64,000 nucleotides of DNA. It comes from Candidatus Sulfotelmatobacter sp. (GTDB lineage Bacteria; Acidobacteriota; Terriglobia; Terriglobales; Acidobacteriaceae). Made by a program: the position numbers and the translations under genes. This document shows, one piece after another, positions 23,683-54,177 of this stretch. Location: positions 9,420 through 73,419 of the forward strand of contig JASHOT010000280.1 of NCBI GenBank assembly GCA_030040965.1. Reading direction: 5' to 3'. The notes beneath the pieces are model-generated. The model was not told the origin of the DNA, did not search any database, and saw only the letters and a program-made list of their open reading frames with translations. The stretch's first letter is position 1. Each line of letters starts with the position of its first letter.

Positions 23683-23878
23683 GAACTGCGACGGCTCGGG
23701 AACATCCGGAAAGCATGCCCGTCCGCGACTGGACGGAAGCGGCTCTTAGGACAGGGAGGGTTCTCAATCGTTTGCGAGTTCACGTCAGGCAATTACCAAA
23801 TGGACCCGGCGCGGCCTCCGGGCCGCACCGCTGCGCTTTACGAACTTGCACCAAAAAGCCAATCTACCCTACTGTAGC

Positions 23879-24106
23879 CTACTCAGTAAAATAGCCCTCC
23901 GACCAATTGTCCACTCCTATGAGATACCTGACAATCTCAAATCCTTCAGGGTAGTCCTTGAATCCCGGTCTTTCCGCAATACGCCCTTGTGCAGACCTTG
24001 CGTCACTTTCAGATGAGTAAACACCAATAAGCTTTTCGTTGTTCTCACTCGCGCCCGTAGGATGGAGAGTGCCACAAGAGATAGACCGCATTCATTAATC
24101 TTTACT
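23879..24106 (-). pseudogene. small conserved-looking protein split by a frameshift
   Basis: Frame 1 gives MNAVYLLWHSPSYGRE-stop. The 70-aa track ORF in the adjacent frame continues ...ASENNEKLIGVYSSESDARSAQGRIAERPGFKDYPEGF.... Together they read as one ~75-aa protein. The join is near a GGG run at ~24058-24062. Confidence 0.4.
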
Positions 24107-24341
24107 CCTTTCTCGCCTGTTATTGTCCACGCCCGCTTACCTGGCTGGCGGATGGCGTCGACTCCAAACAGAAGGAATGGTATTGCCTAAGCAGGTCACA
24201 GCAAGATAAATGTTACCTTCCCGGTCGAAAGTGGTGACCAAAGGCTTTGATCCGCTCGAGGATACTTGGAACCGCGTCAATCGGTCGGGTGCCATTCTGC
24301 CTCGGGCCTAAAGTTCATCGGCACTCCTCTAATGCTGGCGC

Positions 24342-27797: not shown

Positions 27798-28098
27798 GTT
27801 ATTTCCCCTTTCGGACGACGCGGTACGATCCTGAAAGCCGCGGTATGTCACTGGCGGCGCCGGCCGCGATCGAAACGGGCGATATAGCGGCGACTGCAAG
27901 CAGGAGATTGAAAGTGCGCGTCTTTCTCAAGTTCAAAGCACCCCAGTTCATAGGCGGCCGTCCTTTGAGGTTCGTTCTATTCCCAGGGGAGTTTCATTCC
28001 GGGGAAGTCGTAGAACCCGTGCAGAGATATCGAACCCGTCTTTTATCCCAAAGTAGGGTGCTCGGGCAAACTGTGCAGCCATTCATGTCACAGGCGGA

Positions 28099-28220: not shown

Positions 28221-29741
28221 GTGCCTTCAACGTCCCAAATGCAGGATTCTACCTCGCTCGCGGGGCGGTATTCGCCGAAATCAGCACTGCTGCGGGTTGT
28301 GGCGTTGGCCGTGCTGTTCTCTGCAGCGGCGGTTTATGAAGCGGCGAGTCTTTCTGCGTTTTCCGCGCCGCAGCTCTGGCTCCATCTGCGCACCGGCTTG
28401 TGGATGTTGCAAAATCATGCGCTTCCGCGCACCGGGCTGTTCTCGCAGTATTCCAACCTTTCCTGGCACGATCCCAGCTGGCTCTTTGATCTCCTGCTCG
28501 GTGGGGCCTATCGTCTGCTGGGCCTGCGAGCGATCGCGATCCTGCTGATGCTGCTGAAGGTCGCTCTCGCTGTCGTTACTTTTCTTCTGGCGCGGGCCAT
28601 GCGGGTAAGTTGGTGGGCAGCGGTAGCTCTCTCAGCACTCGCGCAGTATGCCATTGCCCATCTGCAGCCGGTTCCTTCCGTTGTTTCAATTCTTTTCTTT
28701 GCGCTGGAGTTTAGACTGCTCATTCGCTCGCGGGCGACAGGTTCAACCCGAGACTTGTTCTGGCTGCCGCCGTTATTTCTTCTTTGGGCCAACGGGGACA
28801 ATCAATTCGGCGTGGGATTGATTCTGCTTGGACTGTTCCTCATCTCTTTGCTGATCGAGCAAGCGCTGAGAATGCGGCACCCGGTATGGATCAGTCCGGG
28901 CATCGTGCCTGTCAACCCTGCGAGGGTCGGCGCCGTGACCGTGCTTTCTCTGCTGGCAACATTCGTGACTCCGTACGGATTTCATCTCTTGCCCGAGGGA
29001 TTCAAGGCACTTTACAGCGATGTCGGCTTCGAACATTTCTCGGAAATGAGCGCCATTGCCTTCCGCACTCCGCAGGAATATGTGTTGATGCTGATGGTCA
29101 TGATTGCATTCCTCACGCTGGGCCGTCGGCGCTCGCTGGCGCTGTTCGAATTGATGATTTTGCTCGCAGGAACGGCCCTTGCTTTCCGCATTGAACGCGA
29201 TAGCTGGATCGCGGTTCTTGCGGCGATTGCGATCATTCCCTCTGCTTTCACAGAGAGCGACTGTGCTGCCGAATCTCTTCAACGCAGCCTACGCGGCGGG
29301 ATTGCCGCGACAGCAGTCATCGTCTTGATTGCGCCGCTGTTCGTTCCGCGGTCGGATGTGTTGATGGCCAGGATCGCGCGAAATTTTCCCGTGGCGGCGT
29401 GCAATTACATACGAGAGCATCATCTGCCGCCGCCACTTTTCAACGCATATTCATGGGGAAGTTTTCTGACGTGGTATCTGCCGGAGTATCCGGTAGATGT
29501 CGACAGCCGCGTGGAGTTATACGGAAGCGACCGGCCGAGCAAGTATTTTGACGTAATCGGCGGTAAGGAGCGACTGGAATCGTATCCCGATGTGTCGCGG
29601 GCTGGCACGCTATTGCTGGAACGAGAGTCGGCGATGGCAAAGGCACTCACGACCTTGCCCGCGTTGAGCGCGCGCTATCGGCTGGTGTACAGCGACGATC
29701 TGGCAGACGTATTCGTTCCTGTAGAGCCGCCTCTCCAGTGA
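28221..29741 (+). CDS. polytopic membrane protein with C-terminal extracytoplasmic domain (putative GT-C-fold glycosyltransferase, function unknown)
   Basis: Many hydrophobic helices. Paralog of 29763-31304, with shared motifs (W.HL..G...., LF.LW.N..QF..GL, S[FY].WG.FL..Y.PEYPV..D.R..LYG). GTG start at 28221 or ATG at 28239. Confidence 0.65.
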   Translation: MPSTSQMQDSTSLAGRYSPKSALLRVVALAVLFSAAAVYEAASLSAFSAPQLWLHLRTGLWMLQNHALPRTGLFSQYSNLSWHDPSWLFDLLLGGAYRLLGLRAIAILLMLLKVALAVVTFLLARAMRVSWWAAVALSALAQYAIAHLQPVPSVVSILFFALEFRLLIRSRATGSTRDLFWLPPLFLLWANGDNQFGVGLILLGLFLISLLIEQALRMRHPVWISPGIVPVNPARVGAVTVLSLLATFVTPYGFHLLPEGFKALYSDVGFEHFSEMSAIAFRTPQEYVLMLMVMIAFLTLGRRRSLALFELMILLAGTALAFRIERDSWIAVLAAIAIIPSAFTESDCAAESLQRSLRGGIAATAVIVLIAPLFVPRSDVLMARIARNFPVAACNYIREHHLPPPLFNAYSWGSFLTWYLPEYPVDVDSRVELYGSDRPSKYFDVIGGKERLESYPDVSRAGTLLLERESAMAKALTTLPALSARYRLVYSDDLADVFVPVEPPLQ

Positions 29742-29762: not shown

Positions 29763-31304
29763 TTACCAGTTGCGGGCGAGAACCAGCGCGATCTCGTCGC
29801 GATAGATGACGCGAAAGCGGCGGTCGGTCAAAAGCATCTGCGCAATCGGTAATTTGCGCTTGAGCAGGACGACTCCAGCCTCATTGAGAATGGGGTCGGT
29901 GAGATACGATGGCTCGGCTTCCTGCGTGGCATGGTAGCGCTGATCCATGGCATCGCCGTAGAGATCGGTGCGGCCGTCCATCGACACCGGATACTCGGGC
30001 ATGTAGAAGATCAGGAAGCCGCCCCAGTCAAAGCTGTTGTAGAGCGGTCCTCCCACTGGATTGCGTCGCAGAAAATTTACGGCGTCCACCGGATATTCGC
30101 CGCTGATCGCGTGGTCAAGGCCGCGCTGATTGAAATCGGTGTTGCGAAGCGTCAGCAGTAAAAGGAAGATGCTGGCAACAACCGCGGTCGCCCATCCTGA
30201 AAGTCGAATCGATGGCGTCTCGCGTTCTGTGGAAGGGAAGTCAGCAATAATCGCAGCCGCGGTGACACAGATGAACCAGGTGTCGCGCCAGGTGCGAAAG
30301 GCGAAGACACTGGCAAAGATGAGCAACGCCAGTTTGAAGGGATCGAGTTTCTTCTTCCATCCCAGAGCGAAATATGCCGTCACCGCCAGCAGCAACTCAA
30401 TCCATTGATGAAAGAAGGCAAAGCTCAAGGCCTGCAATTCGCGGATCATCGAGTACATGACCTTCGATCTGGAGATGACGATCGCGTGCTGGTACAAGTG
30501 AAATGAGTAAGGGCTCGCACAGCCTGCAACAACACAGCAAGCGAGAACGATGAAGGGCTCCATCACGGGAACCGACGAAGGCTGCAGATAATCTGGATAG
30601 ACGCGCGACGAAATCGCGAGCCGCTTCAGAAGATTCATGCCAGCAAAAAGTCCGATGACGGCCAGCCCATAGACGAATTGAATGTGAACGTTTGCCCAGA
30701 TGAGAAAGACGAGAGGCAGCCAATAAAGCGGTCTCGCTTGGCCCGTGTGTTGTGCCTCGAAGAGTTGCGTCAACAAAATGGTGTACAAGATCACGGTGAA
30801 AAAGACCGGCCGCGGCGCGATGTTAAATAGAAATCCGAGATAGGCGACGATCGAAAGCGCCCACGCGACCCAGAATCGCCCTGAGATTCGATAAAGCATG
30901 CGAAAGACAGCCATTGCGACGGCGATCGTGAGCGCGGTGCCAAAAAGGCCCAGGCCCATGAAACTCCACCAATCGTAGGCAGGAGAGAGCAGAACTTCGT
31001 AGCCCCAGCTGTAGGCCATCCACGAATGATCGGCGGCGGTGCGGGAAAAGATTCCGTTGTGCGGGAAGGCGCGGTGCTGGACGATCCAGTCGCCCACACT
31101 GAGATGCCACCAGATATCAGGATCGAGCACGGAAAGCTTGGTGAGAAAGCATTCGCTTCCCACGCCAAGAATAAGGAGGACGATTGCGAAGATGCGCAGA
31201 GCGCGCAATCGGAACAGATCGAGGATCTCCTGCGCGGCGCTCATCGGTCGCCGAGCCTCAGGCCGGTCGGGGGCGGGTACGGTGGATGGGTGCATTGCGG
31301 ACAT
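29763..31304 (-). CDS. polytopic membrane protein, paralog of 28221-29741 (putative GT-C-fold glycosyltransferase)
   Basis: Colinear similarity to the convergent neighbour. ATG at 31304 chosen (MSAMHPS...). The track start at 31319 is a TTG. Confidence 0.65.
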   Translation of the reverse strand: MSAMHPSTVPAPDRPEARRPMSAAQEILDLFRLRALRIFAIVLLILGVGSECFLTKLSVLDPDIWWHLSVGDWIVQHRAFPHNGIFSRTAADHSWMAYSWGYEVLLSPAYDWWSFMGLGLFGTALTIAVAMAVFRMLYRISGRFWVAWALSIVAYLGFLFNIAPRPVFFTVILYTILLTQLFEAQHTGQARPLYWLPLVFLIWANVHIQFVYGLAVIGLFAGMNLLKRLAISSRVYPDYLQPSSVPVMEPFIVLACCVVAGCASPYSFHLYQHAIVISRSKVMYSMIRELQALSFAFFHQWIELLLAVTAYFALGWKKKLDPFKLALLIFASVFAFRTWRDTWFICVTAAAIIADFPSTERETPSIRLSGWATAVVASIFLLLLTLRNTDFNQRGLDHAISGEYPVDAVNFLRRNPVGGPLYNSFDWGGFLIFYMPEYPVSMDGRTDLYGDAMDQRYHATQEAEPSYLTDPILNEAGVVLLKRKLPIAQMLLTDRRFRVIYRDEIALVLARNW

Positions 31305-31320
31305 GAGTTTCAGCCACAAC

Positions 31321-31938
31321 TCACTTGAATGCGAACGACGACAGGATCAGCCGAAGCGATTGTCGCGCATTCTCCGCCTCGGAATCCGGCGGAAGCGAAG
31401 ACATCGGAGTCCCGGATTCATCGCTCAACGAGACTGCGATCCGCAGTTCGTAACAATGCTCTTTCTGAAACGACCTGTACAAATATAAGCTCTGCAAGTG
31501 CCCGGCAACTGTTTTTTTGACGGCAGCATAGCGAAAGATGAGCCCATTGATAGTAATGGATGAAGGCTGGACTTGATCTCCGTGCTCGCGGCTGAAGCGG
31601 TCGGAGTAAGCCAGGCACTCCGCCTCGGCGTTTGAACCGCGACCGGCATCCACAGAAAATCCCGCAGCTTCGAATCTAGTGTTTTCGACATCGTCGAACG
31701 GATAGATTACGCAAACCAGAGCAGTGGCGAAATCGCAGACAGGAATTGCGAGATGCCGGCCCTGCGTAGCCTTCAAGATACGGTCGCCGACCAGAAGTTG
31801 GTAATTCTCAGGATAAATAAACTGAAATGCATCGTCGGGACTGTTGAAGGTTTCGAGGGACGGTGGTTCTTGCGCGACTGCCATGGAAGAAACAAAACAC
31901 AGCACGAAACCGATGAAAGCGATATTGAGCAGCTTCAT
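31321..31938 (-). CDS. secreted protein of unknown function (205 aa)
   Basis: Signal peptide MKLLNIAFIGFVLCFVSSMAVAQ. Its stop is 16 nt before the start of the downstream membrane-protein gene. Confidence 0.6.
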   Translation of the reverse strand: MKLLNIAFIGFVLCFVSSMAVAQEPPSLETFNSPDDAFQFIYPENYQLLVGDRILKATQGRHLAIPVCDFATALVCVIYPFDDVENTRFEAAGFSVDAGRGSNAEAECLAYSDRFSREHGDQVQPSSITINGLIFRYAAVKKTVAGHLQSLYLYRSFQKEHCYELRIAVSLSDESGTPMSSLPPDSEAENARQSLRLILSSFAFK

Positions 31939-32217: not shown

Positions 32218-32883
32218 TTACATGGCGGGCTTATCAGTTTTCGTCCCAGGAGCGATGCTGAGGTGGCGCTTCGCCTGCGCCATCATCTGTTCAACTTCGG
32301 GCCGTTTCGGACTCTTGGGTTCGAGTTTCAGATAAGCTTCCCAGGCGGCGATAGCCGCCTTCGGATCGGCTTTTCCCTTCCACTCAAAATAGCCGAGATT
32401 GAAGAGTACTTTCGAGTTTTTCGGATCGATCTTGTGGGCGCGGTTCAGGGTGGCAATGCCTTTATCAAGGTCGCCCAACTTCACATAGATGAAGGCCAGT
32501 TCGTTTAATGCATCCGGCTGCGGCTTGACCGATGCCGCTTCCTCCAGATATTGCTGAGCGCTCTGAAATTGCTGAGCGGACAGGTACGAGTGGCCAATTT
32601 GCGCTAAAAGATCGGCATCTTTCGGATTTTTCTGCAACTGTTCAAGCAAAGGAGCAACCTGCTTATCCGCCATGCGCTTGAGATCGGCGGCGCTGGGCAT
32701 GGGATGCGGAGGGTTGCCCGGCGCCGGAGCTGGCGCGACTGCCGACGTGGTGGCTCCTGCGCTAGCCGTTGCCGGTGCATGCAGCAGATAGCCGGCGGCT
32801 ATGCCTAGCATGAGGCAGATCACACCCATGGTGAAGGTTTGTGTGTTATTCCAGGTCTTTAAGCTTTGATCGCTGGTTTCCAT
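32218..32883 (-). CDS. membrane-anchored TPR protein (CcmI/CycH/NrfG-like periplasmic TPR module)
   Basis: N-terminal TM (FTMGVICLMLGIAAGYLL), Ala/Pro linker and TPR repeats. C-terminal ...AIAAWEAYLKLEPKSP...PGTKTDKPAM. Paralog of 33221-33922. Confidence 0.7.
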   Translation of the reverse strand: METSDQSLKTWNNTQTFTMGVICLMLGIAAGYLLHAPATASAGATTSAVAPAPAPGNPPHPMPSAADLKRMADKQVAPLLEQLQKNPKDADLLAQIGHSYLSAQQFQSAQQYLEEAASVKPQPDALNELAFIYVKLGDLDKGIATLNRAHKIDPKNSKVLFNLGYFEWKGKADPKAAIAAWEAYLKLEPKSPKRPEVEQMMAQAKRHLSIAPGTKTDKPAM

Positions 32884-33220: not shown

Positions 33221-33922
33221 ATGACGGATATAAAGGGTTCTGAGTCCGGGAAATGGACCAGCACACAGGCCTATGCGCTGTCGGTAATCTGCCTGCTGGT
33301 GGGCGTAGCAGTCGGGTATCTCGTGCGCGGCTCGGCTCCATCGCAAACCGAGGCGGCGAACGTTCCACAATCACGGTCGAACGGCATGGCAGCACCCGGA
33401 GCAGCACGTTCCAATGGCGCAGTTCAACAACCGACGCCGGAACAGTTGCGGCAGATGGCCGACTCGCAGGCCGCGCCGCTGCTGGCTCAACTCAAGAACG
33501 AGCCCAACAATGCAGAATTATTTTATAAGATCGGGAATTTATATTACGACGCACAACAATATCCCGACGCGGTGAAGTATTACCAGGAATCGTTGAAGAT
33601 CGATCCCAAGGCCACAGACGTTCGCACAGATCTTGGCACTGCATATCACTTGATGGGCCAGCCCGATCAGGCAATCCAGGAATACGACCAGGTGTTGAAG
33701 ATCAATGGCAAGCATGCCAACGCTCTGTTCAACGAAGGCATGGTGAAGTGGCAGGACAAGATGGACATCAACGGGGCCGTTGCCTCGTGGAAGCGGCTGC
33801 TCGAAACTAATCCCAACTATCCGCAGCGGGACCGGGTTGAGCATTTGATTGCGCAGGCGCAACAACACTTGACGATGAGCCCGGGAACGAAAACTGATAA
33901 GCCGGCGGCGATTGCGCAATAA
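33221..33922 (+). CDS. membrane-anchored TPR protein, paralog of 32218-32883
   Basis: Same architecture as its paralog. TM segment YALSVICLLVGVAVGYLV. C-terminal ...AVASWKRLLETNPNYP...PGTKTDKPAAIAQ. Confidence 0.7.
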   Translation: MTDIKGSESGKWTSTQAYALSVICLLVGVAVGYLVRGSAPSQTEAANVPQSRSNGMAAPGAARSNGAVQQPTPEQLRQMADSQAAPLLAQLKNEPNNAELFYKIGNLYYDAQQYPDAVKYYQESLKIDPKATDVRTDLGTAYHLMGQPDQAIQEYDQVLKINGKHANALFNEGMVKWQDKMDINGAVASWKRLLETNPNYPQRDRVEHLIAQAQQHLTMSPGTKTDKPAAIAQ

Positions 33923-33959: not shown

Positions 33960-35639
33960 ATGGAGACGGAAGTCCAACTGGAGAAAAATGAGGCCGCGGC
34001 GATCGGGCGTCCGCACCGGACGATGCTGGCTGCGGCAGCGATTCTTGTTCCTCTAGTTCTCATGGTAATTCTTGAGGTGGGATTGAGAATCGCAGGCGTG
34101 GGTTATAACACGGACCTGCTGGTTCCTTGCACCCTGCAGGGAGCACCAGCCAACTGCTACAACCTGTTCTTTGCGGCTCCGTTTTTCCCCGCCGGGATGG
34201 TGCAGACCCCTCGCTTGTACTCGATCCCGGCGACCAAGCCATCGGGAACCTATCGCATTTTTGTGCTGGGAGAATCTGCGGCCATGGGCGATCCCGATTC
34301 CGCCTACGGATTCAGCCGCTATCTGGAGATGATGCTGCGCACTGGCTACCCGTCGATGAAGTTTGAGGTCGTGAATACGGGCAGCGTGGCCATCGACTCG
34401 CACGTGCTGCTGCCGATTGCGAAAGGGCTGGCTGGCCAGCGTCCGGATCTGTTCATCATTTATTCCGGGAATAACGAAGTGGTGGGGCCTTACGGTCCAG
34501 GCACCGTGCTCACGGCATCGGCGATGAGCATGCCAGTCGTGCGGGGCAGCATTTTTTATCACTCCACGCGCATCGGCCAGATGATCACTCGTCTCGGCAC
34601 GCAGAAAAAAGAATGGCGCGGCATGGAGATGTTTCTCGACAAGCAGGTGCCTGCAAGTTCTCCCTGGATGAAATATGTCTACGCAAACTTCGCTGAAAAC
34701 CTTCATGAAACGATCGAGGTTGCGCGGAGCGCGGGCGCGAAGGTCATCGTTTCGACCATTGCGACGAATCTGAAAGATTGCGCGCCGTTCGCGTCTCAGC
34801 ATCGGGAGGGATTGAAGCCGGACGAGTTGCGATCCTGGACCGCGCTGGTCGAGCAAGGCGAAGCCTTGGAGGTCAACTCGCCGGCCGAGGCTCTGAAGGC
34901 GTACTTCGCCGCCGCAAAAATTGATGATGACTACGCTGAGCTCGAATTTCGGATTGGACGCGCCCTATGGAGCAGCGGAGATGCAAGGTCGGCCAGGGAG
35001 CACTTTGTGCGGGCGCGCGATCTCGATACGCTTCGTTTTCGCGCCGACAGCCGGATCAACGAAATCAATCGCGCAGCCGTAACTTCGCTTCGCGATGGCG
35101 TCGCCCTCGTTGACGCGGAGAATATCTTGTCGGATGCGAGTCCCGATGGGATTATCAACTCCGATTACGTGTACGAGCACGTGCATCTGACGCCGGAAGG
35201 CAATTATCTTCTGGCCCGAGCGATGTTCCTGCAGATAGCCAAAAATCTTCCAACCCGGGGCAACGCTCCTGCAGGATCGGATGTTCTCTCCGAGACCGAT
35301 TGCGAGCGACTGCTCGCTCTGACGCGCTTTGATCGCGCACGCCTCGCAGCTGACATGCTCGATCGGCTGCAAAAGCCTCCCTTCACTACGCAGCTGAATC
35401 ACTCCGAACAACTCTTTCGCATGGCAGCCAAAGCACAAGCAACCGGCGAAACTCCCAACGAAACGCTTGCACAGTATCAATGGGCGATCGCGAAAAGCCC
35501 GGAAGACCGCATGCTGCGTCTGCGAGTGGGAATGTTTCTCTATCCCTACAATCGTGCGGCGGCGGCCGAGCAGTTGGGGATGGCGCAACCCTGGGATGGA
35601 TATCCGGTTTTCCTGCCGGATGGAACCCAGGTTCGCTGA
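33960..35639 (+). CDS. membrane-anchored SGNH/GDSL-fold protein with C-terminal helical-repeat region (DltD/AlgJ-role candidate)
   Basis: N-terminal TM. SGNH-like blocks: FVLGESAAMGD (block I), IIYSGNNEV (block III), YEHVHLTPEGN (block V, D/E-x-x-H). Confidence 0.65.
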   Translation: METEVQLEKNEAAAIGRPHRTMLAAAAILVPLVLMVILEVGLRIAGVGYNTDLLVPCTLQGAPANCYNLFFAAPFFPAGMVQTPRLYSIPATKPSGTYRIFVLGESAAMGDPDSAYGFSRYLEMMLRTGYPSMKFEVVNTGSVAIDSHVLLPIAKGLAGQRPDLFIIYSGNNEVVGPYGPGTVLTASAMSMPVVRGSIFYHSTRIGQMITRLGTQKKEWRGMEMFLDKQVPASSPWMKYVYANFAENLHETIEVARSAGAKVIVSTIATNLKDCAPFASQHREGLKPDELRSWTALVEQGEALEVNSPAEALKAYFAAAKIDDDYAELEFRIGRALWSSGDARSAREHFVRARDLDTLRFRADSRINEINRAAVTSLRDGVALVDAENILSDASPDGIINSDYVYEHVHLTPEGNYLLARAMFLQIAKNLPTRGNAPAGSDVLSETDCERLLALTRFDRARLAADMLDRLQKPPFTTQLNHSEQLFRMAAKAQATGETPNETLAQYQWAIAKSPEDRMLRLRVGMFLYPYNRAAAAEQLGMAQPWDGYPVFLPDGTQVR

Positions 35640-35675
35640 CCAGTTCTCGCCGACCCAGGTTTCGCTAGCTGTTCC

Positions 35676-37166
35676 CTAAAACTGCCGATACATGAACTGG
35701 CTGGCGCTGGCTTGTTGCCCATGTGTAACCAGGAAGACGAAAAACAGCACCAAAACATAGAGCGAAGGGACCCAGAACCACCGCCAGCGGGCGAGTGCAG
35801 CGAGCGGTCCGGAAAGTGATCGCCTGTCTGGCGCCTGTGTGCTTGCGGTGTGCTGGTCCAGTACGTCGGCGAGTGCGACGACCAGCGTGTATCCGCCCGC
35901 TAATGACGCGATCAGAACGTACAGGCTTGAGCTCAGCAGATGGGAAAAATAACTTGCAGGCGCAACGATCGCGGAAAGCATATGCATCGCCTGCTGCCAG
36001 GAGTTTGCGCGAAAGAAGATCCACCCCAGGCTGATGAGCGAGGCAGTGACGATCCACGACAAAAGGGACCAGAGCCTTTCTGGCGGTTGCCAATCGACTT
36101 TGCGCTCCCACTGCTGCAACTGCCGATGCGCAACCAGCAGCACGCCATGATATGCGCCCCAAATCACGAATAGCAGCGTAGCTCTGTGCCATAGTCCAAA
36201 CGCGACCATGGACAGACCGAGTATCAGATTTCGCCACCAGACTTCGCGCCGCGCCGTGGCAAGCGGAAAGAAAAAATAATCGCGAATCCAGAAGGAGAGC
36301 GACATGTGCCAGCGCGTCCAAAAAGCGGAAAGTGTTGTTGAGGCAAAGGGCCGCTCGAAATTTTCCGGAAGCGCGAAGCCGAGCACCTTGGCCGCGCCGA
36401 TGGCAATGTGCGTGTAGCCGGCGAAATCGAAAAACAACTGGAGTCCGTAACCAAAGGCGAGACACCAGACATCGAGAGCCGTCCACTGATCTGCGTGATC
36501 GAACCCGCCTATGACCCCATCACCGGAGAGAATTCCCTGGCCCAGCAATTTGGCCAACTGCAACATCAGCACGCCGATGGCAATTCGTCGCAACCCTTGC
36601 GCAATGTCACTCATGGTGGTCGTCTGCTGCGAGCGAAATTGCGGCAACATCTCGGGCAAGCGACAAATCGGCCCGGAGATGGTCACAGGAAAAAAAGACA
36701 GGAACAAAGCAAATTCGATGAAAGTGGGGTCCAGCTCTTCTCCGCGATAAACATCGAACAAGTAACTCATCGCCTGGAAGGTCCAGAAAGAAATCCCAAG
36801 CGGTAGAGCCATGCCCGCGATGCCATGCAGGGAATCGAATCCGGTGCGGGCGGCGAGGTCAGGAAGGTATTTGAAAACGCCTAACAGCGCCAGATTAAAT
36901 ATGAGTCCAATCGACAGCGGCGCCCAGCGGGGATTCCGCTGCAGCCATTTTCCCATCAAGAAATTGACCAGAATTGAACTAAACAGGACGGCGGTGAACC
37001 ACGGTGCCCATGTGAGATAGAGTGAGATGCTGGCGGCGAGAAGAACGCTTTGGCGGGTTGTTCGCGAACGACTGCTCGCCAACACGAGCAGGCAGACGAA
37101 AAAAAAGAAAACGTAGCAGCCGCCCCGAAACAAGACATCCGAGTGTTCCAAGTCAGTTCCTCCCAT
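35676..37166 (-). CDS. MBOAT-family membrane O-acyltransferase (AlgI/DltB-like)
   Basis: Polytopic membrane protein. FWTRWHMSLSFWIRDYFFFPL contains the conserved MBOAT His region. Start overlaps the upstream gene stop by 14 nt. Confidence 0.85.
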   Translation of the reverse strand: MGGTDLEHSDVLFRGGCYVFFFFVCLLVLASSRSRTTRQSVLLAASISLYLTWAPWFTAVLFSSILVNFLMGKWLQRNPRWAPLSIGLIFNLALLGVFKYLPDLAARTGFDSLHGIAGMALPLGISFWTFQAMSYLFDVYRGEELDPTFIEFALFLSFFPVTISGPICRLPEMLPQFRSQQTTTMSDIAQGLRRIAIGVLMLQLAKLLGQGILSGDGVIGGFDHADQWTALDVWCLAFGYGLQLFFDFAGYTHIAIGAAKVLGFALPENFERPFASTTLSAFWTRWHMSLSFWIRDYFFFPLATARREVWWRNLILGLSMVAFGLWHRATLLFVIWGAYHGVLLVAHRQLQQWERKVDWQPPERLWSLLSWIVTASLISLGWIFFRANSWQQAMHMLSAIVAPASYFSHLLSSSLYVLIASLAGGYTLVVALADVLDQHTASTQAPDRRSLSGPLAALARWRWFWVPSLYVLVLFFVFLVTHGQQASASQFMYRQF

Positions 37167-38844
37167 TCTTTCGTTGAGTTATCTGCTGTCGAAGCTGCAA
37201 TGCCGCCGCATTCTCAGGATCAAGCGCCAAAGCCTGTGAAACTGATCTTTCTGCGGCAGCAAAGTCGCCCAATTGCAGCCAAGCCTCGGAACATTCGTTC
37301 AGGCAGAGCAACGCCATTTCGCGATTGGCGGTGAATCGGAGAGCCAGCTGATATTCGCGAATCGCATCGCGAAACTGGCCTTTACCGAAATAGATATGTG
37401 CAATATTGTAATGACAGTATTCTGTCCGAGGCTGAATTGCGCAGGACTCCTGATAGTGCTCCAAGGCCTCATCCACGCGGCCGGCTGAGAAAAGGGCGTT
37501 TCCGTAAAGTTGCTCGAGCCACATGTCGGGACGTCCCCATGCGTTTCTCGCTTGAGCGAACAAAGTGACGGGATCCTTCCAGCAACTGAGATAGCGGGTC
37601 GTCGAGAGACTCAACACAACGATTACGACTATGCCGGCAAGCGGTAAGAACCTGCGCATCGCAGGCAAAGTGTCGATAAGACTCGCCAGGCCCCACACCA
37701 TCATGATGAAAATTCCGATGGCGGGAATATACATATAGCGGTCTGCCATTCCCTGAAAGCCCACCTGCACGATGCCAATCACGGGAATCGATGCGATCAG
37801 AAAGAAGAACCATCCTGTCAGCAAGTATCCACTGCGGCTCAACCCTACCGCCAGAGCCGTGATCGCAATGAGGATTGCAGTCGAGGCGATGGCGTCGCCC
37901 AGTGCTGGAGAAAGTTGCAGGGGATAGTAGGCTGCGAGTTTCACGGGCCAGAATATCTTGCCAATGTAGGCCACGCATGAGATCGCGGCATTTTGCATGC
38001 GCGTCGAAATTGGCAGCAAAGACAGCGCCATGACGGAGCCGCCAGAATTTTGGGCGCGTTCCGTGAGCACGGAACTGGCTGCGCTGAGCGACAACAAAGG
38101 CAGCTTTTCGAACGCCAGTTTTGACCATCGTCGCAAGAAGGGAAGCTCTTCCTCACGATGCAGCGGCCAGAAATCAAATAGCAGCAACGAGAGCGGCAAA
38201 GTCACGGCCATCGGCTTGGCCATAAGGGCCAGCACGAAAGCGAAAACAAGGACTAGATACCTCGGCCAGCGCCGGTTGCGCAGATACCATCCGTACACAG
38301 CTACAGCGAGAAAAGAAAAGAATGCGCTGAGCAGGCTCTTTCGCTGTGCGATCCAGGCGACGGTCTCGACATTGAGCGGATGAACCGCGAACAGAAAGGC
38401 GACGAAAAAACTCCGCCCTGCAGCGCCCGTTGCACGCTGCAGAATCCAGAACAAGAGAAAGACATTAGCCGCGTGAAGCAACACATTCTCATAATGAGGC
38501 GGAAACGGACTCAGTCCAAACAACTGGCAATCCGTCATGTGCGAAATCCAGGTCAGCGGATGCCAGTTTGACTGCTCAAAACTCGTCAGCGCCCAGCGAA
38601 CATTGGCGATCGTCAAGCCGGAGGCGACATGGGGATTATCGGTGACGTAGGCGTCGTCATCCCATAGCCTTAGAAATCCATGATGGCGAACTGGAAGATA
38701 AAGCAGCAAAACCCATACTGCCAGCACCAGGCCGAGCAGCATTGGCCGTTTGCATAACTTGTCCAAGGATGCCGCGAACCGCATGAATGATTGCTCCGGA
38801 TATTGCGGAACAAGAGAGTATAAATGGCGCATCAAGGGCCGCAT
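37153..38844 (-). CDS. TMTC/PMT-like GT-C glycosyltransferase with C-terminal TPR repeats
   Basis: N-terminal polytopic domain with LWDDDAYVTDNPHV (DD motif in the first loop, as in protein O-mannosyltransferase-like enzymes). C-terminal TPR repeats (YGNALFSAGRVDEALEHYQESCAIQP...). Confidence 0.7.
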   Translation of the reverse strand: MRPLMRHLYSLVPQYPEQSFMRFAASLDKLCKRPMLLGLVLAVWVLLLYLPVRHHGFLRLWDDDAYVTDNPHVASGLTIANVRWALTSFEQSNWHPLTWISHMTDCQLFGLSPFPPHYENVLLHAANVFLLFWILQRATGAAGRSFFVAFLFAVHPLNVETVAWIAQRKSLLSAFFSFLAVAVYGWYLRNRRWPRYLVLVFAFVLALMAKPMAVTLPLSLLLFDFWPLHREEELPFLRRWSKLAFEKLPLLSLSAASSVLTERAQNSGGSVMALSLLPISTRMQNAAISCVAYIGKIFWPVKLAAYYPLQLSPALGDAIASTAILIAITALAVGLSRSGYLLTGWFFFLIASIPVIGIVQVGFQGMADRYMYIPAIGIFIMMVWGLASLIDTLPAMRRFLPLAGIVVIVVLSLSTTRYLSCWKDPVTLFAQARNAWGRPDMWLEQLYGNALFSAGRVDEALEHYQESCAIQPRTEYCHYNIAHIYFGKGQFRDAIREYQLALRFTANREMALLCLNECSEAWLQLGDFAAAERSVSQALALDPENAAALQLRQQITQRKNGRN

Positions 38845-38885
38845 GTCGGCAGTTGTAGTAACAAAGCCGTCGTCTACAATGGCGT

Positions 38886-40598
38886 GTGTTTCGATTCTCC
38901 AATCTGGTGGAAGCTCTGGACGCTGCGCCTGCCGAGCGGCCGTTCATTACATTCTGGATCGACGAAGACCAGCGCGAGACGGTGACGTTCGGGGAATTTC
39001 GCCAGCGCACGTTCTCGGAAGCGGAAGAACTACGACAGCACGGCTTAAAGACCGGTGACCGTGTGGTAATCATCATGCCGCAATCGATTTCGGCGATGGT
39101 GACGTTTGCCGCAGCGATGAGAACTGGTGCGGTGCCGGCATTTCTCGCATATCCCAATTTCAAGGTCGAGTCGGCGAAATATCGGTGGGGACTGGCTGGG
39201 GTCACGGCAAATCTCAGCGCCAAGGCCATTGTGATCGACGCGGAATTTCCTGACGAATTCCTCGGTTGCATCTCGCTCGGTGATCCAAGCAAACTGATTC
39301 GCGCGCAGGATCACGCGAAGTCGCCGCAGTCGCATGGACAATTCAAGAATGCGGAGATTCGGTCCGAGAATCTTGCATTTATTCAGCACTCTGCCGGTAC
39401 CACGGGACTGCAAAAAGGCGTAGCGCTCAGTCACGGCGCGGTGCTGCGCCAGATCGAATACCTGTCGCAATCGTTGCGTATCGACGGCAGCTCCGACCGC
39501 ATTTATAGCTGGCTGCCGCTCTATCACGATATGGGATTAATCGCGTGCTTCATGCTACCCATCGTCTGCCACGTTCCGCTGGTCATGCAGTCTCCCCTGG
39601 AGTGGGTGATGCATCCCGATTCGACGTTGCAGATTATCAGCGAATACAAATGCACGCTGGCGTGGATGCCAAATTTTGCATTTCAATTTATCCCACGGCG
39701 TACGCCGAACGGCCGATGGGCAGAGTACGATCTTTCCTCCCTTCGCCTGCTGATCAATTGTTCCGAGCCGGTCCGGACCACGAGCATGAGTGAGTTTCAA
39801 AAGGCATTCTCCGTTTCCAGTGCGGTGCTGCAGTCCTCTTACGCAATGGCGGAGAATGTTTTCGCGGTTACGCAATCTGACAACGAGCGCGGCCCGGCGA
39901 CTCTGTGGGCCGACGGAGTGCAATTTCGCAATGCTCATCGCATTGTTCCGGTTTGCAAGGCAACTGCCGGCGCTGTCGCGTTTATGTCATCGGGGCGGCT
40001 TCTGCCGAATCAAAAAGTGCGGATCATCTCCGAGTCCGGTACGACGTTCGACAGCGACTTTGTCGGCGAAATAGTGATTCAAAGCGATTGCCTGTTCGAC
40101 GGCTACTACAATCGTCCGGACTTGACGGAACAAGCGATCGTTGATGGCTGGTATCACACGGGCGATCTCGGGTTCTATCACGATGGCGAACTTTATGTCG
40201 TCGGCCGGAAGAAGGATCTGCTGATTATCGGCGGCGAGAATATATATCCGCAGGACATCGAAGAAATTGTTGGCGGCCATGCCTCGGTCCACGATGGGCG
40301 CGTCATTGCGATGGGGCTGTACAATCCGAATCTTGGGACGGAGGAAATTGTGGTGGTCGCTGAATTGGTGGACGAGGAAGAACTCGCCAACTCCGTTGCA
40401 CTCGAAGGCGAGATTCGCGGCGCAGTGGTTTCCGGACTGGGCGTTGCGGTGAAGAAGATCTTTTTGAAACCGCCAAAGTGGATTGTGAAAAGCACCGCCG
40501 GAAAAGCCGCGCGTGCGGCCACCCGAGAAAAGCTGCTGCGTGAGCATCCGGAGTTGAACGCGCATGCGGACTTGGATCAGGAGAACACATCGAAATGA
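38886..40598 (+). CDS. adenylate-forming ligase (acyl/aminoacyl-AMP ligase loading a carrier protein; FAAL/DltA-like)
   Basis: AMP-binding core motifs SAGTTGLQKG, GWYHTGDLG and GRKKDLLIIGGENIYPQDIE. GTG start. The stop overlaps the carrier-protein ATG. Confidence 0.85.
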   Translation: MFRFSNLVEALDAAPAERPFITFWIDEDQRETVTFGEFRQRTFSEAEELRQHGLKTGDRVVIIMPQSISAMVTFAAAMRTGAVPAFLAYPNFKVESAKYRWGLAGVTANLSAKAIVIDAEFPDEFLGCISLGDPSKLIRAQDHAKSPQSHGQFKNAEIRSENLAFIQHSAGTTGLQKGVALSHGAVLRQIEYLSQSLRIDGSSDRIYSWLPLYHDMGLIACFMLPIVCHVPLVMQSPLEWVMHPDSTLQIISEYKCTLAWMPNFAFQFIPRRTPNGRWAEYDLSSLRLLINCSEPVRTTSMSEFQKAFSVSSAVLQSSYAMAENVFAVTQSDNERGPATLWADGVQFRNAHRIVPVCKATAGAVAFMSSGRLLPNQKVRIISESGTTFDSDFVGEIVIQSDCLFDGYYNRPDLTEQAIVDGWYHTGDLGFYHDGELYVVGRKKDLLIIGGENIYPQDIEEIVGGHASVHDGRVIAMGLYNPNLGTEEIVVVAELVDEEELANSVALEGEIRGAVVSGLGVAVKKIFLKPPKWIVKSTAGKAARAATREKLLREHPELNAHADLDQENTSK

Positions 40599-40843
40599 CC
40601 GCAGACGAGCAGCAGATGGTTGAGCACATAGTCGAGTTGATTCGCAAACCTGGAGTGACGATCAATGAAAACACGCCGCTCGTCTCTTCCGGTCTCATCG
40701 ACTCTATGGAGTTGGTTGATCTTCTGCTAAGACTTGAGGATATTACGCACCGCCGCATTCCGGCGGGCAAGGTGCAGCCCAAAGATATGGACACGGTCGC
40801 TAAAATGTTCGCCACTGCCGAGCGAGTCGGGAAGCCGCGCTAG
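40595..40843 (+). CDS. acyl/peptidyl carrier protein (DltC-like)
   Basis: 82 aa. GLIDSMELVDLLLRLE contains the phosphopantetheine Ser motif. ATGA coupling to the ligase gene. Confidence 0.8.
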   Translation: MTADEQQMVEHIVELIRKPGVTINENTPLVSSGLIDSMELVDLLLRLEDITHRRIPAGKVQPKDMDTVAKMFATAERVGKPR

Positions 40844-42200: not shown

Positions 42201-42896
42201 ATGTCCCCAGCCGAATTCGATTCCTTCGCGAAAAGTTACGAACAGGACCTGGCCAAATCGCTGGCAGTCACCGGCGAGACGCGCGAATTCTACGCGCAAC
42301 AGCGAATCGATTGGACGGCGGAGTGTTTATCCCGACTGAAACATCGCGTGCGGCGAATTCTGGATTATGGCTGCGGCGATGGCGCGAACGTGCCCATGCT
42401 CGCTTCAAAGTTCGAGGCAGAGCAGGTCATCGGAGTGGATGTTTCCAGCGCTTCGATCGCTGTAGCCCGGCAGTCCCACGCCTCGCCGGCATGTTCTTTT
42501 TTTTGCCTCGAGGAATTTGCGCCGAAGGGCGAGCTGGATCTCGTGTTCACGAATGGAGTTTTCCATCACATTCCCCTAAGCGAGCGGCGCGCTTGCCTGC
42601 TGGCGATTCGGCAATCTTTGCGGCCGGGAGCGGTTTTCGCATTCTGGGAAAATAATCCGTGGAATCCGGGCACTCGCTATGTCATGTCGCAATGCGCTTT
42701 TGATGAAAACGCAATTACCATTAACCCACCGAAGGCGCGCAGAATTCTCTCGGAAGCCGGGTTCAAAATTGTGAGAACAGATTCACTTTTCTATTTCCCT
42801 CGCCAACTCGGTTTTCTGCGTCCGATGGAGCGCTGGCTTCGAGGGTTACCTTTGGGAGGGCAATACCTGGTACTGTGCCAGAATTCTCCAGAGTAA
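42201..42896 (+). CDS. class I SAM-dependent methyltransferase
   Basis: ILDYGCGDG motif I. The ATG is 3 nt after the GT2 stop. The track ORF start at 41697 is an out-of-gene extension overlapping the GT2. Confidence 0.8.
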   Translation: MSPAEFDSFAKSYEQDLAKSLAVTGETREFYAQQRIDWTAECLSRLKHRVRRILDYGCGDGANVPMLASKFEAEQVIGVDVSSASIAVARQSHASPACSFFCLEEFAPKGELDLVFTNGVFHHIPLSERRACLLAIRQSLRPGAVFAFWENNPWNPGTRYVMSQCAFDENAITINPPKARRILSEAGFKIVRTDSLFYFPRQLGFLRPMERWLRGLPLGGQYLVLCQNSPE

Positions 42897-54153: not shown

Positions 54154-54177
54154 GGCGCGGCGTTGTTAGCCCGCGCC
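54154..54177 (-). terminator. hairpin GGCGCGG-N10-CCGCGCC flanked by T/A runs, after the upstream TolC gene
   Basis: On the minus strand the stem is followed by AATTCTTTTGGG. Located 58 nt after the 54235 stop. Confidence 0.45.

Follow-up and report, generated by a model that had tools for sequence, protein, structure and literature searches.

The closest described systems are acyl relays built around an MBOAT. In the Dlt system (DltX/A/B/C/D), which D-alanylates teichoic acids, a cytoplasmic adenylating ligase and a small phosphopantetheinyl carrier with a DS(M/L) serine are combined with an MBOAT that has a conserved histidine, an acyl-tyrosine FxYxxF shuttle, and a membrane-anchored SGNH-type transferase (PMC12148441; PMC5541007). 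The acyl group passes from DltC to DltB, then to a tyrosine of DltX, and then to a serine of DltD; in the PatA/PatB system of peptidoglycan O-acetylation, it passes from a PatA tyrosine to a PatB serine (PMC12148441). MBOATs with a fused shuttle have been published as acyl-CoA users that work without carriers, and the PatA/PatB, AlgI/AlgJ/AlgX, and WssH/WssI systems use acetyl-CoA with neither a carrier nor a ligase (PMC12148441). Carrier proteins had been considered unnecessary for acyl relays other than the Gram-positive Dlt system, and this is why the module described here matters.

Carrier-dependent modification of a diderm envelope is known from AlmEFG of Vibrio cholerae and from Gram-negative dlt/dra loci, which resemble our locus in joining a DltA-like ligase to a DltC-like carrier. 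AlmG is an LpxL-type lipid A acyltransferase of the cytoplasmic face and not an MBOAT, and Gram-negative dlt loci have genuine DltA and DltB. None of these loci is known to use a FAAL. FAALs use holo-carriers and reject CoA (PMC8460268), and an MBOAT context is not mentioned in the FAAL surveys PMC8460268 and PMC12820801.

We analyzed a 64,000-nucleotide stretch of DNA from a soil acidobacterium (the window) in which each of the Dlt parts listed above has a counterpart (Table 1). The preliminary description of the window had reported four ORFs, for a ligase, a carrier, an MBOAT, and an SGNH protein, and all four are present where it placed them. The ligase motifs and the coupling of the ligase to the 82-aa carrier also held: in the window DNA, the ligase stop and the carrier start overlap in ATGA. 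So did the convergence of the SGNH gene on the MBOAT gene, with a gap of 36 nt. The claim that the MBOAT gene is divergent from the ligase and carrier genes held only in part. A fifth gene, for a membrane+TPR protein, lies between the MBOAT and the ligase and had been overlooked; it is this gene that is directly divergent. Its 3' end shares 14 nt with the start of the MBOAT gene, and from this overlap we infer that the two are probably cotranscribed.

Table 1. Features of the acylation locus and its surroundings (window positions)
Feature	Coordinates	Strand	Remarks
Polytopic membrane protein, ~510 aa (one of two paralogues)	28221..29741	+	no family
Polytopic membrane protein, ~510 aa (one of two paralogues)	29763..31319	-	no family
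TPR1, membrane-anchored TPR protein	32218..32883	-	translation; paralogue-like partner of TPR2
TPR2, membrane-anchored TPR protein	33221..33922	+	translation; frequent module neighbor
SGNH-fold protein (likely), N-terminal membrane anchor	33960..35639	+	559 aa; 575 aa from TTG 33912
MBOAT, fused C-terminal acyl-shuttle tail	35676..37166	-	496 aa
Polytopic membrane+TPR protein	37153..38844	-	563 aa; 543 aa from NCBI start 38784
Ligase, adenylating, very probably FAAL-type	38886..40598	+	570 aa; SAGTTGLQKG, YHTGDLG, GRKKDLLIIGGENIYPQDIE
Carrier, stand-alone phosphopantetheine	40595..40843	+	82 aa; with GLIDSMELVDLLLRLE
GT2 glycosyltransferase, C-terminal TM helices	40882..42198	+	3' of carrier; PF00535
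SAM-dependent methyltransferase	42201..42896	+	231 aa; Methyltransf_25/_12/_11

We infer from sequence alone that the ligase is very likely a FAAL-type enzyme and not a DltA. It matches PF00501 (AMP-binding) with 174.7 bits, and its best NCBIfam match is the FAAL model NF006624 (307.9 bits). It fails the amino-acid adenylation model TIGR01733 (133 bits, cut-off 317), and its 25 best NCBIfam matches include no DltA model. In the PDB, it best matches the FAALs 3PBK, 3KXW, and 7R7E-G, all full length, with an E value of ~1e-59 to 3PBK. The residues through which EcFAAL rejects CoA, W224/P226/M231/F279/P107 (PMC8460268), align with W209/P211/M216/F264/P90 of the ligase, and W209, P211, M216, and F264 are invariant in ~74 homologues. 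A segment of FSH length is kept, and LPLYHDMGL stands where amino-acid A-domains have their Asp motif. In its full-length similarity, its CoA-rejecting residues, its FSH-length segment, and its adjoining carrier, the ligase is like the FAAL+ACP pairs of PKS, NRPS, and lipid pathways (FadD32/Pks13, EcFAAL 3PBK, LpFAAL 3KXW). However, the window pair is not followed by a PKS, an NRPS condensation domain, or an AGPAT-type acyltransferase; its apparent downstream consumer is the MBOAT.

The carrier is about equally DltC-like and ACP-like. It scores 27.4 bits on the DltC model NF003464 (cut-off 68) and 26.2 bits on an ACP model, and its PDB matches are 6CXT and the DltC chain 7R49_H (E value of ~1e-4). 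On PF00550 (PP-binding), it reaches 20.2 bits, slightly below the gathering cut-off of 20.8. Ser37, in the motif G-L-(I/V)-D-S-M, is invariant in 73/73 homologues.

The MBOAT (62.3 bits on PF03062) is not of the DltB type. Residues 112 to 385 align with the DltB structures 8JEM and 6BUG (E value of ~1e-32), but the protein misses the DltB model TIGR04091 (178.8 bits against a cut-off of 375). Its core is 34 to 42% identical to acyl-CoA-type enzymes with a fused tail (37.5% to NgPatA), compared with 31% to DltB. As in PatA, AlgI, and WssH, two extra C-terminal helices end in the FxYxxF acyl-shuttle motif as defined in PMC12148441; the sequence is FMYRQF here and FIYANF in NgPatA. The shuttle is fused to the MBOAT, whereas Dlt carries it on the DltX microprotein, and no DltX is present at the window locus. 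None of the residues H287, H327, Y493, and F496 varies among the homologues (81/81).

The product of the remaining core gene is predicted by modeling to have the SGNH fold, which we consider likely. The HMM support is weak (22.6 bits on PF13472, cut-off 32.9), although PF13472 is found in many homologues, and it is backed by Foldseek matches and by invariant residues of catalytic type. The AF2 model is only moderately confident (pLDDT of 68.3, and <50 around Ser106), and a TM helix is predicted at residues 19 to 44. Foldseek with this model returned SGNH esterases (target-normalized TM-score of 0.55 to 0.72) and also NgPatB (7TJB), a separate periplasmic SGNH partner like that expected here. 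Ser106 (GES), Gly170, and His409 are invariant among homologues, whereas N (49) or T (14) occupies position 172 and E (61) or D (2) occupies position 406. The protein differs from DltD in carrying an inserted and C-terminal TPR-like helical region, and similarity to DltD was not detectable.

The genes are conserved together across Terriglobia. In 80 species-level Terriglobia genomes, we counted ligase and carrier genes at the 71 loci whose upstream flank was at least 4.5 kb. The ligase adjoins the MBOAT in 69/71 loci (~97%), and the carrier adjoins the ligase, flanking the MBOAT, in 68 of the 71. An SGNH gene was found in 62/72 loci by blastp and in 65/72 when tblastn was added; ~10% of the loci with ample flank have none. 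Ligase and MBOAT genes are immediate divergent neighbors in 48 loci (median gap, 132 nt), and the neighbors beyond these four genes vary. Six control MBOATs (32 to 37% identity) had no adjoining ligase. All relatives come from MAGs or metagenome contigs. Five loci without an SGNH gene (L017, L018, L020, L036, and L050) instead have a GNAT-aminotransferase fusion, an ABC exporter, and a second ligase after the MBOAT, a content that fits lipid-like chemistry better.

The association also extends to more distant relatives. Of 21 metagenome loci flanked by at least 3.5 kb on each side, 18 have the carrier, 17 the ligase, and 16 the SGNH gene. The adjacency of ligase, carrier, and MBOAT is kept through three gene orders and 41 to 57% sequence divergence: colinear FAAL-CP-MBOAT-SGNH in L086, MBOAT-FAAL-CP in L088, and CP-FAAL-MBOAT-microprotein-SGNH in L095. 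In L095, stops and starts overlap, the MBOAT is short, and the shuttle is split and DltX-like, as in dltXABCD. In a neighbor-joining tree, the carrier-linked MBOATs with a fused tail are monophyletic (100/100 bootstraps), to the exclusion of NgPatA, five other carrier-less MBOATs, DltB, and the short MBOAT of L095. The tree holds few carrier-less controls and lacks AlgI and WssH. Two kinds of partner ligase occur within this clade, FAALs and true amino-acid adenylation enzymes (327 to 333 bits on TIGR01733, cut-off 317); both are accompanied by carriers. Relatives adjoin genes for NDP-heptose or other NDP-sugars, a polysaccharide deacetylase, GTs, Wzz, a Wzx-like flippase, and an ABC-2 exporter. 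The window module itself lies outside any polysaccharide cluster.

Our reading, which we favor with moderate confidence, is that the products of the locus form an MBOAT-SGNH acyl relay that depends on a carrier protein and modifies an extracytoplasmic component of the acidobacterial envelope. The gene content, motifs, co-conservation, and clade structure are shown above; the chemical steps, cargo, and acceptor are inferred. The FAAL-type ligase would adenylate a carboxylic acid, most likely fatty or fatty-acid-like and not an alpha-amino acid; the sequence alone determines neither the chemical nature of the cargo nor its chain length. The acid would then be passed to a phosphopantetheine arm on Ser37 of the carrier, a step that we propose because the ligase has the CoA-rejecting features of FAALs. 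The acyl-carrier would dock on the cytoplasmic face of the MBOAT, whose His327 would catalyze transfer to its own Tyr493 (FMYRQF) on the periplasmic side. Ser106 of the SGNH protein, with His409 and Glu406, would receive the acyl group and hand it to the acceptor. The invariant catalytic set comprises carrier Ser37, MBOAT H287/H327/Y493/F496, SGNH S106/H409, and the FAAL motifs. The acceptor would most probably be a periplasmic surface glycan, which is likely by analogy with relatives that have polysaccharide genes beside them. Because fused-shuttle MBOATs have been published as acyl-CoA users without carriers, carrier use here rests solely on genomic association.

The Dlt-like four-component logic that the preliminary description had proposed is thus supported by the computational checks, in logic and not in membership: the window MBOAT, carrier, and ligase fall short of the equivalog cut-offs for DltB, DltC, and DltA, the cargo is taken to be something other than an amino acid, and the host is a diderm and lacks teichoic acids, unlike the Gram-positive hosts of Dlt. 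Its view that the ligase is closer to FAALs than to DltA held on NCBIfam profiles and PDB matches. It had left open acylation or aminoacylation; the latter is unlikely for the window, even though amino-acid adenylation enzymes are used in sister systems. Its check of co-conservation was passed, with a ligase-carrier-MBOAT core that is near-invariant across Terriglobia loci and flanks that change. The grouping with acetyl-CoA-type PatA-like enzymes that it named as a refutation was not found in the neighbor-joining tree with its few carrier-less controls.

The alternative that survives best, though we think it unlikely, keeps the relay and takes the acceptor to be, in place of a finished polysaccharide or protein, a membrane lipid or lipid-linked molecule located in the inner membrane's outer leaflet: lipid A or the LPS core, a hopanoid, an aminolipid, or a polyprenyl-linked intermediate. 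In its favor, a FAAL cargo is likely hydrophobic, and the window module is outside a polysaccharide cluster and beside a GT2 of polyprenyl-phosphate-sugar type. L017-type loci carry an alpha-oxoamine-synthase-like aminotransferase fused to GNAT and an MsbA-like ABC exporter. The SGNH proteins are 53 to 85% identical and the MBOATs 58 to 70%, which we read as stronger conservation of the SGNH protein, fitting a universal acceptor. However, all characterized bacterial MBOAT-SGNH pairs target polymers (PMC12148441), the distant relatives L086, L095, L113, and L141 accompany Wzz, Wzx-like or ABC-2 export genes and NDP-sugar genes, and the TPR insertions suggest a macromolecular acceptor.

A second alternative is that the MBOAT and SGNH protein are an acetyl-CoA-dependent O-acetyltransferase pair like PatA/PatB or AlgI/AlgJ and that the FAAL and carrier serve another lipid or metabolite pathway, being nearby only by shared ancestry. 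The fused tail typical of acyl-CoA users and the core identities given above speak for it, as do L017-type loci, which combine FAAL and carrier with the aminotransferase/GNAT fusion and ABC exporter. We regard it as very unlikely. Most loci offer the FAAL-carrier pair no plausible consumer other than the MBOAT, the adjacency survives the three gene orders and their divergence, and the ligase, MBOAT, microprotein, and SGNH genes of L095 overlap. The carrier-linked MBOATs form a distinct clade in which the ligase type changes and the carriers stay, and the six carrier-less controls have no ligase nearby. True Dlt-type aminoacylation, in which the ligase would activate D-alanine or another amino acid and the charge of an anionic surface polymer would change, draws on the near-equal carrier scores and on DltA-resembling adenylation enzymes in sister systems of the MBOAT clade, but it is all but excluded by the low TIGR01733 score and missing DltA match, the replaced Asp motif, and the full-length FAAL matches with invariant FAAL-specific residues.

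Under the preferred relay, three genes may decorate the same acceptor. The membrane+TPR protein, the GT2, and the methyltransferase are variable add-ons of the module, present in only 21/82, 15/82, and 15/82 loci, respectively. The membrane+TPR protein matches TPR families at residues 445 to 556, and W41-D42-D43-D44, after TM1, is invariant. JGI labels its homologues "protein O-mannosyl-transferase"; PMT_2 matches only 1/30 homologues and, weakly, the 42%-identical L141 protein. Foldseek and a PDB profile search gave no informative match. A PMT/TMTC-like GT-C glycosyltransferase is possible on sequence grounds only. The GT2 scores 82.9 bits on PF00535 and, below cut-off, 131 bits on AglJ (TIGR04182) and 81 bits on a dolichyl-phosphate hexose transferase model, from which we infer that it is likely of the polyprenyl-phosphate sugar synthase type. 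In locus L001, the GT2 homologue carries GT2_TM_C, a 231-aa methyltransferase homologue occupies the same position, and a TPR homologue stands in the place of TPR2.

TPR1 and TPR2 each have a tblastn match in 58/82 loci; many of these matches are 34 to 52% identical and at other positions, and the two often share one site. The paralogous membrane proteins of ~510 aa have no Pfam or NCBIfam match. They align with each other by hhalign (probability, 100) and are occasional neighbors of the module, in 29 to 31 of the 82 loci.

The preliminary description had reported a Dlt-like set of four genes encoding a ligase, a carrier, an MBOAT, and an SGNH protein. An ORF map confirmed that all four genes exist where they were placed (see the table). 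However, the gene list was incomplete, as it overlooked a gene for a polytopic membrane protein with TPR repeats that separates the ligase from the MBOAT and shares 14 nt with the start of the latter. Because of this position and overlap, we read the minus strand as an operon of the membrane+TPR protein followed by the MBOAT, opposite a plus-strand series of ligase, carrier, GT2, and methyltransferase. The longest ORF for the membrane+TPR protein starts at 38844. In the identical NCBI protein (P0391), as in most homologues, the start is 20 codons further on (38784 in the window), and with it about 101 nt rather than 41 nt separate the gene from the divergent ligase. A self-contained island spans about 28.2-42.9 kb, and elsewhere in the window there are cytochrome, NHL-repeat, efflux, and other unrelated genes. 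A scan for promoters and terminators across 31.0-43.6 kb was uninformative, with counts not above those of shuffled sequence.

Features of the module and of the surrounding window (window positions)
Feature	Position	Strand	Description
Ligase	38886-40598	+	570 aa; ORF map
Carrier	40595-40843	+	82 aa; start inside the ligase stop codon as ATGA
MBOAT	35676-37166	-	496 aa; ORF map
Putative SGNH protein	33960-35639	+	559 aa; convergent, ends 36 nt from the MBOAT stop
Membrane+TPR protein	37153-38844	-	563 aa (543 aa from the NCBI start); polytopic, C-terminal TPR repeats
First paralogous membrane protein	28221-29741	+	about 510 aa; polytopic
Second paralogous membrane protein	29763-31319	-	about 510 aa; polytopic
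Secreted protein	31321-31938		205 aa
Second GT2 and PMT_2-family membrane glycosyltransferase	49725-51811	-	257 aa and 437 aa
Two large OEP-family outer-membrane proteins	51846-56319		
NHL/beta-propeller repeat proteins (one of 1185 aa), multihaem cytochromes, SurA-like PPIase	14735-27899		interleaved
ResB/CcsA cytochrome c assembly genes	10285-13185		

The four-gene reading was also said to fail if the genes were not conserved together. An MBOAT scan with one genome per species gave 560 relatives, and we took the best 80, which are 58-69% identical and nearly all labelled as Acidobacteriota or Terriglobia MAGs. Presence was scored by tblastn and blastp. Where at least 4.5 kb was available upstream of the MBOAT, we found the ligase in 69/71 loci and the carrier in 68/71; where at least 6 kb was available downstream, the SGNH protein was present in 62/72 (65/72 by tblastn). 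Co-conservation therefore held. Directly divergent transcription of ligase and MBOAT is seen in 48 loci (median gap, 132 nt), and the SGNH gene occurs in both orientations. Chance neighbourhood was rejected on these co-occurrence statistics and on the alternative gene orders. Other genes, counted over all 82 loci, are much rarer: the membrane+TPR protein is present in 21, and the GT2, the methyltransferase, and a flanking methylmalonyl-CoA mutase are each present in 15. Since the ligase, carrier, and SGNH protein recur in most loci and the others do not, the conserved core is exactly the original four genes, and the membrane+TPR protein, GT2, and methyltransferase are add-ons to it.

Whether the ligase is a DltA or a FAAL had been left undecided. 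The protein carries an AMP-binding domain (174.7 bits, Pfam), and its top NCBIfam match is the FAAL model NF006624 (307.9 bits, full-length alignment). NF005850, named for a long-chain-fatty-acid--CoA ligase, is also among the top full-length matches, and both fall under their curated subfamily cut-offs. With the amino-acid adenylation model TIGR01733 the ligase reached just 133 bits (cut-off, 317), and no DltA model appears in the 25 best NCBIfam matches. The closest solved structures are FAALs (3PBK, E = 3.5e-59, followed by 3KXW and 7R7E-G). FAALs are defined by a blocked CoA pocket (W224, M231, and F279 in EcFAAL), a helix specific to FAALs, and an alternative pocket lined by prolines (P226 and P107) (PMC8460268). 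We found that EcFAAL W224, M231, F279, P226, and P107 align to ligase W209, M216, F264, P211, and P90, and that about 74 homologues all retain W209, P211, M216, and F264. The helix segment aligns to EcFAAL without gaps. Residues 327-380, which we take to be the region of the FAAL-specific insertion in the N-terminal domain, contain one single-residue gap against EcFAAL; there was no FACL alignment for comparison. Thus, the ligase meets the FAAL criteria in its closest relatives and in its CoA-blocking and alternative-pocket residues, and it sides with FAALs rather than DltA. Because the pocket residues are conserved, we infer from the sequence that the enzyme would not form acyl-CoA and should load its acid onto the holo-carrier. 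The Ala of the A5 motif YAMAE, where many ANL enzymes have Gly, was rejected as a marker of the acyl pocket or cargo size, as the motif is common to 115/150 subfamily representatives.

The 82-aa protein scored 20.2 bits against Pfam PP-binding, slightly under the 20.8 threshold, and fell well below the cut-offs of the DltC models NF003464 (27.4 bits; cut-off, 68) and TIGR01688 (19.1 bits; cut-off, 52.35). Its likeness to DltC and to ACPs is equally weak. Ser37, in the motif G-L-(I/V)-D-S-M, is invariant in 73/73 homologues. The small protein is thus a carrier with an invariant DSM serine, yet it cannot be assigned to DltC. Its best PDB match is the 77-aa chain of 6CXT/6CY8 (E = 5e-5), for which the deposited name, "Alpha/beta hydrolase fold protein," is ill-suited to a carrier-sized chain with a DSL-type serine motif.

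In the Dlt pathway, the acyl group leaves DltC via DltB for a Tyr on the microprotein DltX, within an FxYxxF motif, before reaching the Ser of DltD, while in all other bacterial MBOATs this hexapeptide is fused to the protein's own C terminus on two extra helices; PatA auto-acetylates its own shuttle Tyr using acetyl-CoA (PMC12148441). Residues 112-385 of the window MBOAT align with DltB structures (E about 1e-32), and H327, in GLWH, aligns with the histidine of the DltB WHG motif. The match to the DltB equivalog model TIGR04091 reached 178.8 bits, far from the cut-off of 375. A C-terminal extension of about 110 residues ends in FMYRQF. H287, H327, Y493, and F496 are invariant in 81/81 homologues, and position 491 is F, L, or M. 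The MBOAT therefore meets the PatA/PatB-type criteria of a catalytic His and a C-terminal FxYxxF with an invariant Tyr, with catalysis itself inferred.

Split shuttle microproteins were found only in two distant relatives, L095 and L085. Pfam DUF5989 (PF19451) matches the free-standing microprotein of L085 (11081-11242, minus strand; ending GIAPFVYTLF; 56 bits). It also matches the fused C-terminal tail of an MBOAT from Candidatus Acidoferrales (L086:10377-11864; 42.7 bits), which NCBI names "DUF5989 family protein." There was no DUF5989 match on the window MBOAT tail, though these two match. DUF5989 appears to be a DltX-like acyl-shuttle element, a role that we infer from sequence and consider likely; the family is not mentioned in the literature that we searched.

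The third PatA/PatB-type criterion is an extracytoplasmic SGNH partner with catalytic Ser and His. The putative SGNH protein is weak by HMM, and PF13472 is present in many of its homologues; a PDB sequence search returned TPR matches only. An AF2 model built with 30 homologues (pLDDT, 68.3) shows an N-terminal TM helix and an alpha/beta domain broken up by TPR-like helices. Foldseek matched the model to SGNH esterases (target-normalised TM-score, 0.55-0.72) and to NgPatB. Three residues, Ser106 (GES), Gly170, and His409, never vary among homologues; N or T occupies position 172, and E or D occupies position 406. The model and these invariant residues together satisfy the criterion, with low local model confidence around Ser106.

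The ligase has few close orthologues: among full-length clusters built at 50% identity, only two exceed 55% identity to it, and the next are at 43% or less. The 57%-identical ligase P0242, from Candidatus Acidoferrales, lies in a colinear FAAL-carrier-MBOAT-SGNH locus (L086). Its MBOAT is 47% identical to that of the window and ends in FMYTLF, and its SGNH protein shows no relation by BLAST to the window protein. Heptose and other NDP-sugar genes are upstream, and a polysaccharide deacetylase and a GT2 are downstream. The locus of P0246 (43%) has the order MBOAT (ending FVYVQF), FAAL, and start of a carrier. The locus of P0293 (43%; L095:7727-12261) encodes an 83-aa carrier (CDSL), the FAAL, a 386-aa tail-less MBOAT, a 79-aa microprotein with two TM segments ending SLFLYGRF, a 407-aa anchored protein with SGNH-like G-x-S and D-x-x-H motifs, and Wzz. 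These genes overlap from the ligase onward and lie inside a polysaccharide cluster. We infer from gene content that L095 is a dltXABCD-like split version fed by a FAAL. P0245 (40%) has a carrier and an SGNH protein as neighbours, together with a DUF5989 microprotein that ends in FVYTLF; the 11 kb examined contain no MBOAT. No MBOAT was found near P0252 (L089), and a truncated Chloroflexota FAAL (P0248/P0511) is followed by a transposase without an MBOAT. The FAAL relative P0259 (L094) is at a contig edge, and its context is uninformative.

A metagenome scan seeded with the Acidoferrales MBOAT gave 80 loci at 44-57% identity. Twenty-one of these have at least 3.5 kb on both sides, and among them we found a carrier in 18, a ligase in 17, both in 16, and an SGNH protein in 16. 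The ligase is FAAL-like in 25 of the metagenome loci and of two other types in 19. The two non-FAAL types scored 327 and 333 bits with TIGR01733, above its cut-off, and DltA was the next-best model. In one example the order is SGNH, MBOAT (FIYTLF), amino-acid ligase, GNAT, carrier, and ABC-2 exporter. In another, a Wzx-like flippase is followed by a divergent MBOAT (VMYALF), SGNH, amino-acid ligase, and PMT_2/TPR protein.

The preliminary description would have been refuted by an MBOAT grouping firmly with acetyl-CoA-dependent AlgI/PatA enzymes. We compared the MBOATs with six controls from annotated records (Methylobacter, a Flammeovirgaceae bacterium, Paludibaculum, Deinococcus, Neisseria gonorrhoeae PatA, and Bacillus). 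The controls are 32-37% identical to the window MBOAT, and all end in FxYxxF (FIYANF in NgPatA). None has a ligase nearby, and no carrier is listed in the four with gene annotation. In a neighbour-joining tree of 220 core columns, the carrier-linked, fused-tail MBOATs form one clade in 100/100 bootstraps. Outside it lie the six controls, Streptococcus thermophilus DltB, and the short L095 MBOAT; inside it, FAAL-type and amino-acid-type partners are interleaved. The carrier is the feature that tracks the MBOAT clade, with the caution that the tree is small and its controls thinly sampled. The refuting outcome was not seen against PatA-type controls; the tree includes neither AlgI nor WssH.

These results set the module apart from both known systems. 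The window MBOAT shares the architecture of PatA/AlgI-type MBOATs, yet it belongs to a separate clade. PatA/PatB systems use an acyl-CoA donor without carrier or ligase, whereas here ligase and carrier are present in 69 and 68 of 71 loci, with donor use inferred. Because of this carrier and ligase, it is not a standard PatA/AlgI-type system. Nor is it a Dlt system: DltA is a D-alanine-specific adenylation enzyme, whereas the window ligase is a FAAL; DltB has about 400 aa and no fused tail, whereas the window MBOAT carries one and branches apart from S. thermophilus DltB; and Dlt has a separate DltX microprotein, which the window lacks. With the carrier not assignable to DltC, the DltA, DltB, DltC, and DltX criteria all fail, and the module is Dlt-like in logic, not by membership. 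We found no description of a FAAL/carrier/MBOAT system in a full-text literature search.

We propose a relay in which the FAAL would activate a carboxylic acid and the acyl group would be held as acyl-S-Ppant on carrier Ser37. The MBOAT, through His327, would then form O-acyl-Tyr493 on its fused tail, and the acyl group would pass to SGNH Ser106 and from there to the acceptor. Every step is copied by analogy from demonstrated Dlt and PatAB chemistry (PMC12148441) and FAAL biochemistry (PMC8460268), and none has been shown for these proteins. From the sequence, we infer a carboxylic acid cargo that lacks an alpha-amino group; the simplest candidate is a fatty acid, with a chain length that the sequence does not reveal. 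Because relatives sit in polysaccharide contexts, the acceptor is probably a surface glycan, again by inference.

It remains possible that the acceptor is a lipid instead of a polymer. In favor of this, one group of loci has no SGNH gene (L016-L018, L020, L036, and L050), and L017 and L050 encode an MsbA-like ABC exporter. An ordinary acetyl-CoA-dependent MBOAT-SGNH pair beside an unrelated FAAL is unlikely, as it fits poorly with the adjacency counts, the recurrence of the genes in other orders, and the separate MBOAT clade. D-alanylation in this window is very unlikely and was ruled out on ligase type, since the ligase fails the amino-acid adenylation model.

If the proposed FAAL-to-SGNH relay works, abundant soil Acidobacteria would put on their envelopes acyl groups beyond acetyl-CoA chemistry, for example, fatty acyl or aminoacyl groups, which could influence surface hydrophobicity, desiccation and antimicrobial tolerance, and soil aggregation. 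In the current view, Dlt is carrier dependent with a split DltX shuttle and D-alanine cargo, and all non-Dlt MBOAT-SGNH systems are acyl-CoA dependent with a fused shuttle and acetyl cargo (PMC12148441). What is new in this locus and its clade is that a fused shuttle occurs together with a carrier and a dedicated ligase, either a FAAL or an amino-acid adenylation enzyme, and they offer a natural series for asking what lets an MBOAT take a carrier protein rather than CoA. A bolder reading, which we are more inclined to doubt than to accept, places the window in a large undescribed clade of carrier-dependent MBOATs with their own shuttle tyrosine, in which the cargo would be reprogrammed by swapping the adenylating enzyme (FAAL or amino-acid type); here, a fatty or fatty-acid-like acyl group would be moved onto a surface glycan or glycoprotein in the periplasm. 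If true, diderm bacteria would have a new class of envelope modification, a counterpart to the lipidation of Wnt, Hedgehog, and ghrelin by eukaryotic MBOATs. All of these readings are limited in that they rest on relatives known only as MAGs or metagenome contigs, on structure models of moderate confidence, and on a small tree, without expression or biochemical data.

The membrane+TPR protein was difficult to assign. The features sought were a GT-C fold whose first loop outside the cytoplasm bears acidic residues, or homology to PMT_2 or DUF1736. PMT_2 was detected by Pfam in only 1/30 homologues, and the L141 metagenome homologue matched it with E = 7e-4. An hhalign comparison with the window's own PMT_2 protein was not significant (probability, 1.8%), a profile search of the PDB using just the TM domain gave no match, and Foldseek on the AF2 model was swamped by TPR matches. 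A WDDD motif after TM1 is invariant, and JGI labels homologues as protein O-mannosyl-transferase. A PMT/TMTC-like GT-C glycosyltransferase is possible on this weak support. The GT2, which is of the polyprenyl-phosphate-sugar type, the membrane+TPR protein, and the methyltransferase might fit periplasmic decoration of the relay's own target; this is an inference, and the GT-C assignment is weak.

Several loci showed further variation. In the Terriglobia group without an SGNH gene, a variant represented by L017 (11512-19645), L020, and L050 lacks it within 10 kb. In L017 and L050, the only loci of the group on which Pfam was run, the MBOAT is followed by the exporter gene. L017 also encodes a GNAT-aminotransferase fusion (class I/II, alpha-oxoamine-synthase-like), a methyltransferase, and a second AMP-binding enzyme with an AMP-binding_C domain. 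Separately, sister systems from the same MBOAT clade, with an amino-acid ligase, carrier, and SGNH protein, occur on metagenome contigs (L113:2078-8709 and L141:6105-14703, and also L109, L136, L155, L160, and L162), where they adjoin ABC-2 or Wzx-type export genes. They are possible candidates for aminoacylation systems with fused-shuttle MBOATs.

Within the window, the two paralogous membrane proteins (hhalign probability, 100) have no match in Pfam or NCBIfam and are present beside the module in about 30/82 loci. They adjoin the secreted protein, which is also without a family match. The second GT2/PMT_2 pair is separate from the module, 7 kb downstream, and is followed by the OEP-family proteins. 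The multihaem cytochromes have paired CXXCH motifs and an MtrC/MtrF-like domain, and the cytochrome c assembly genes are directly upstream of their cluster.
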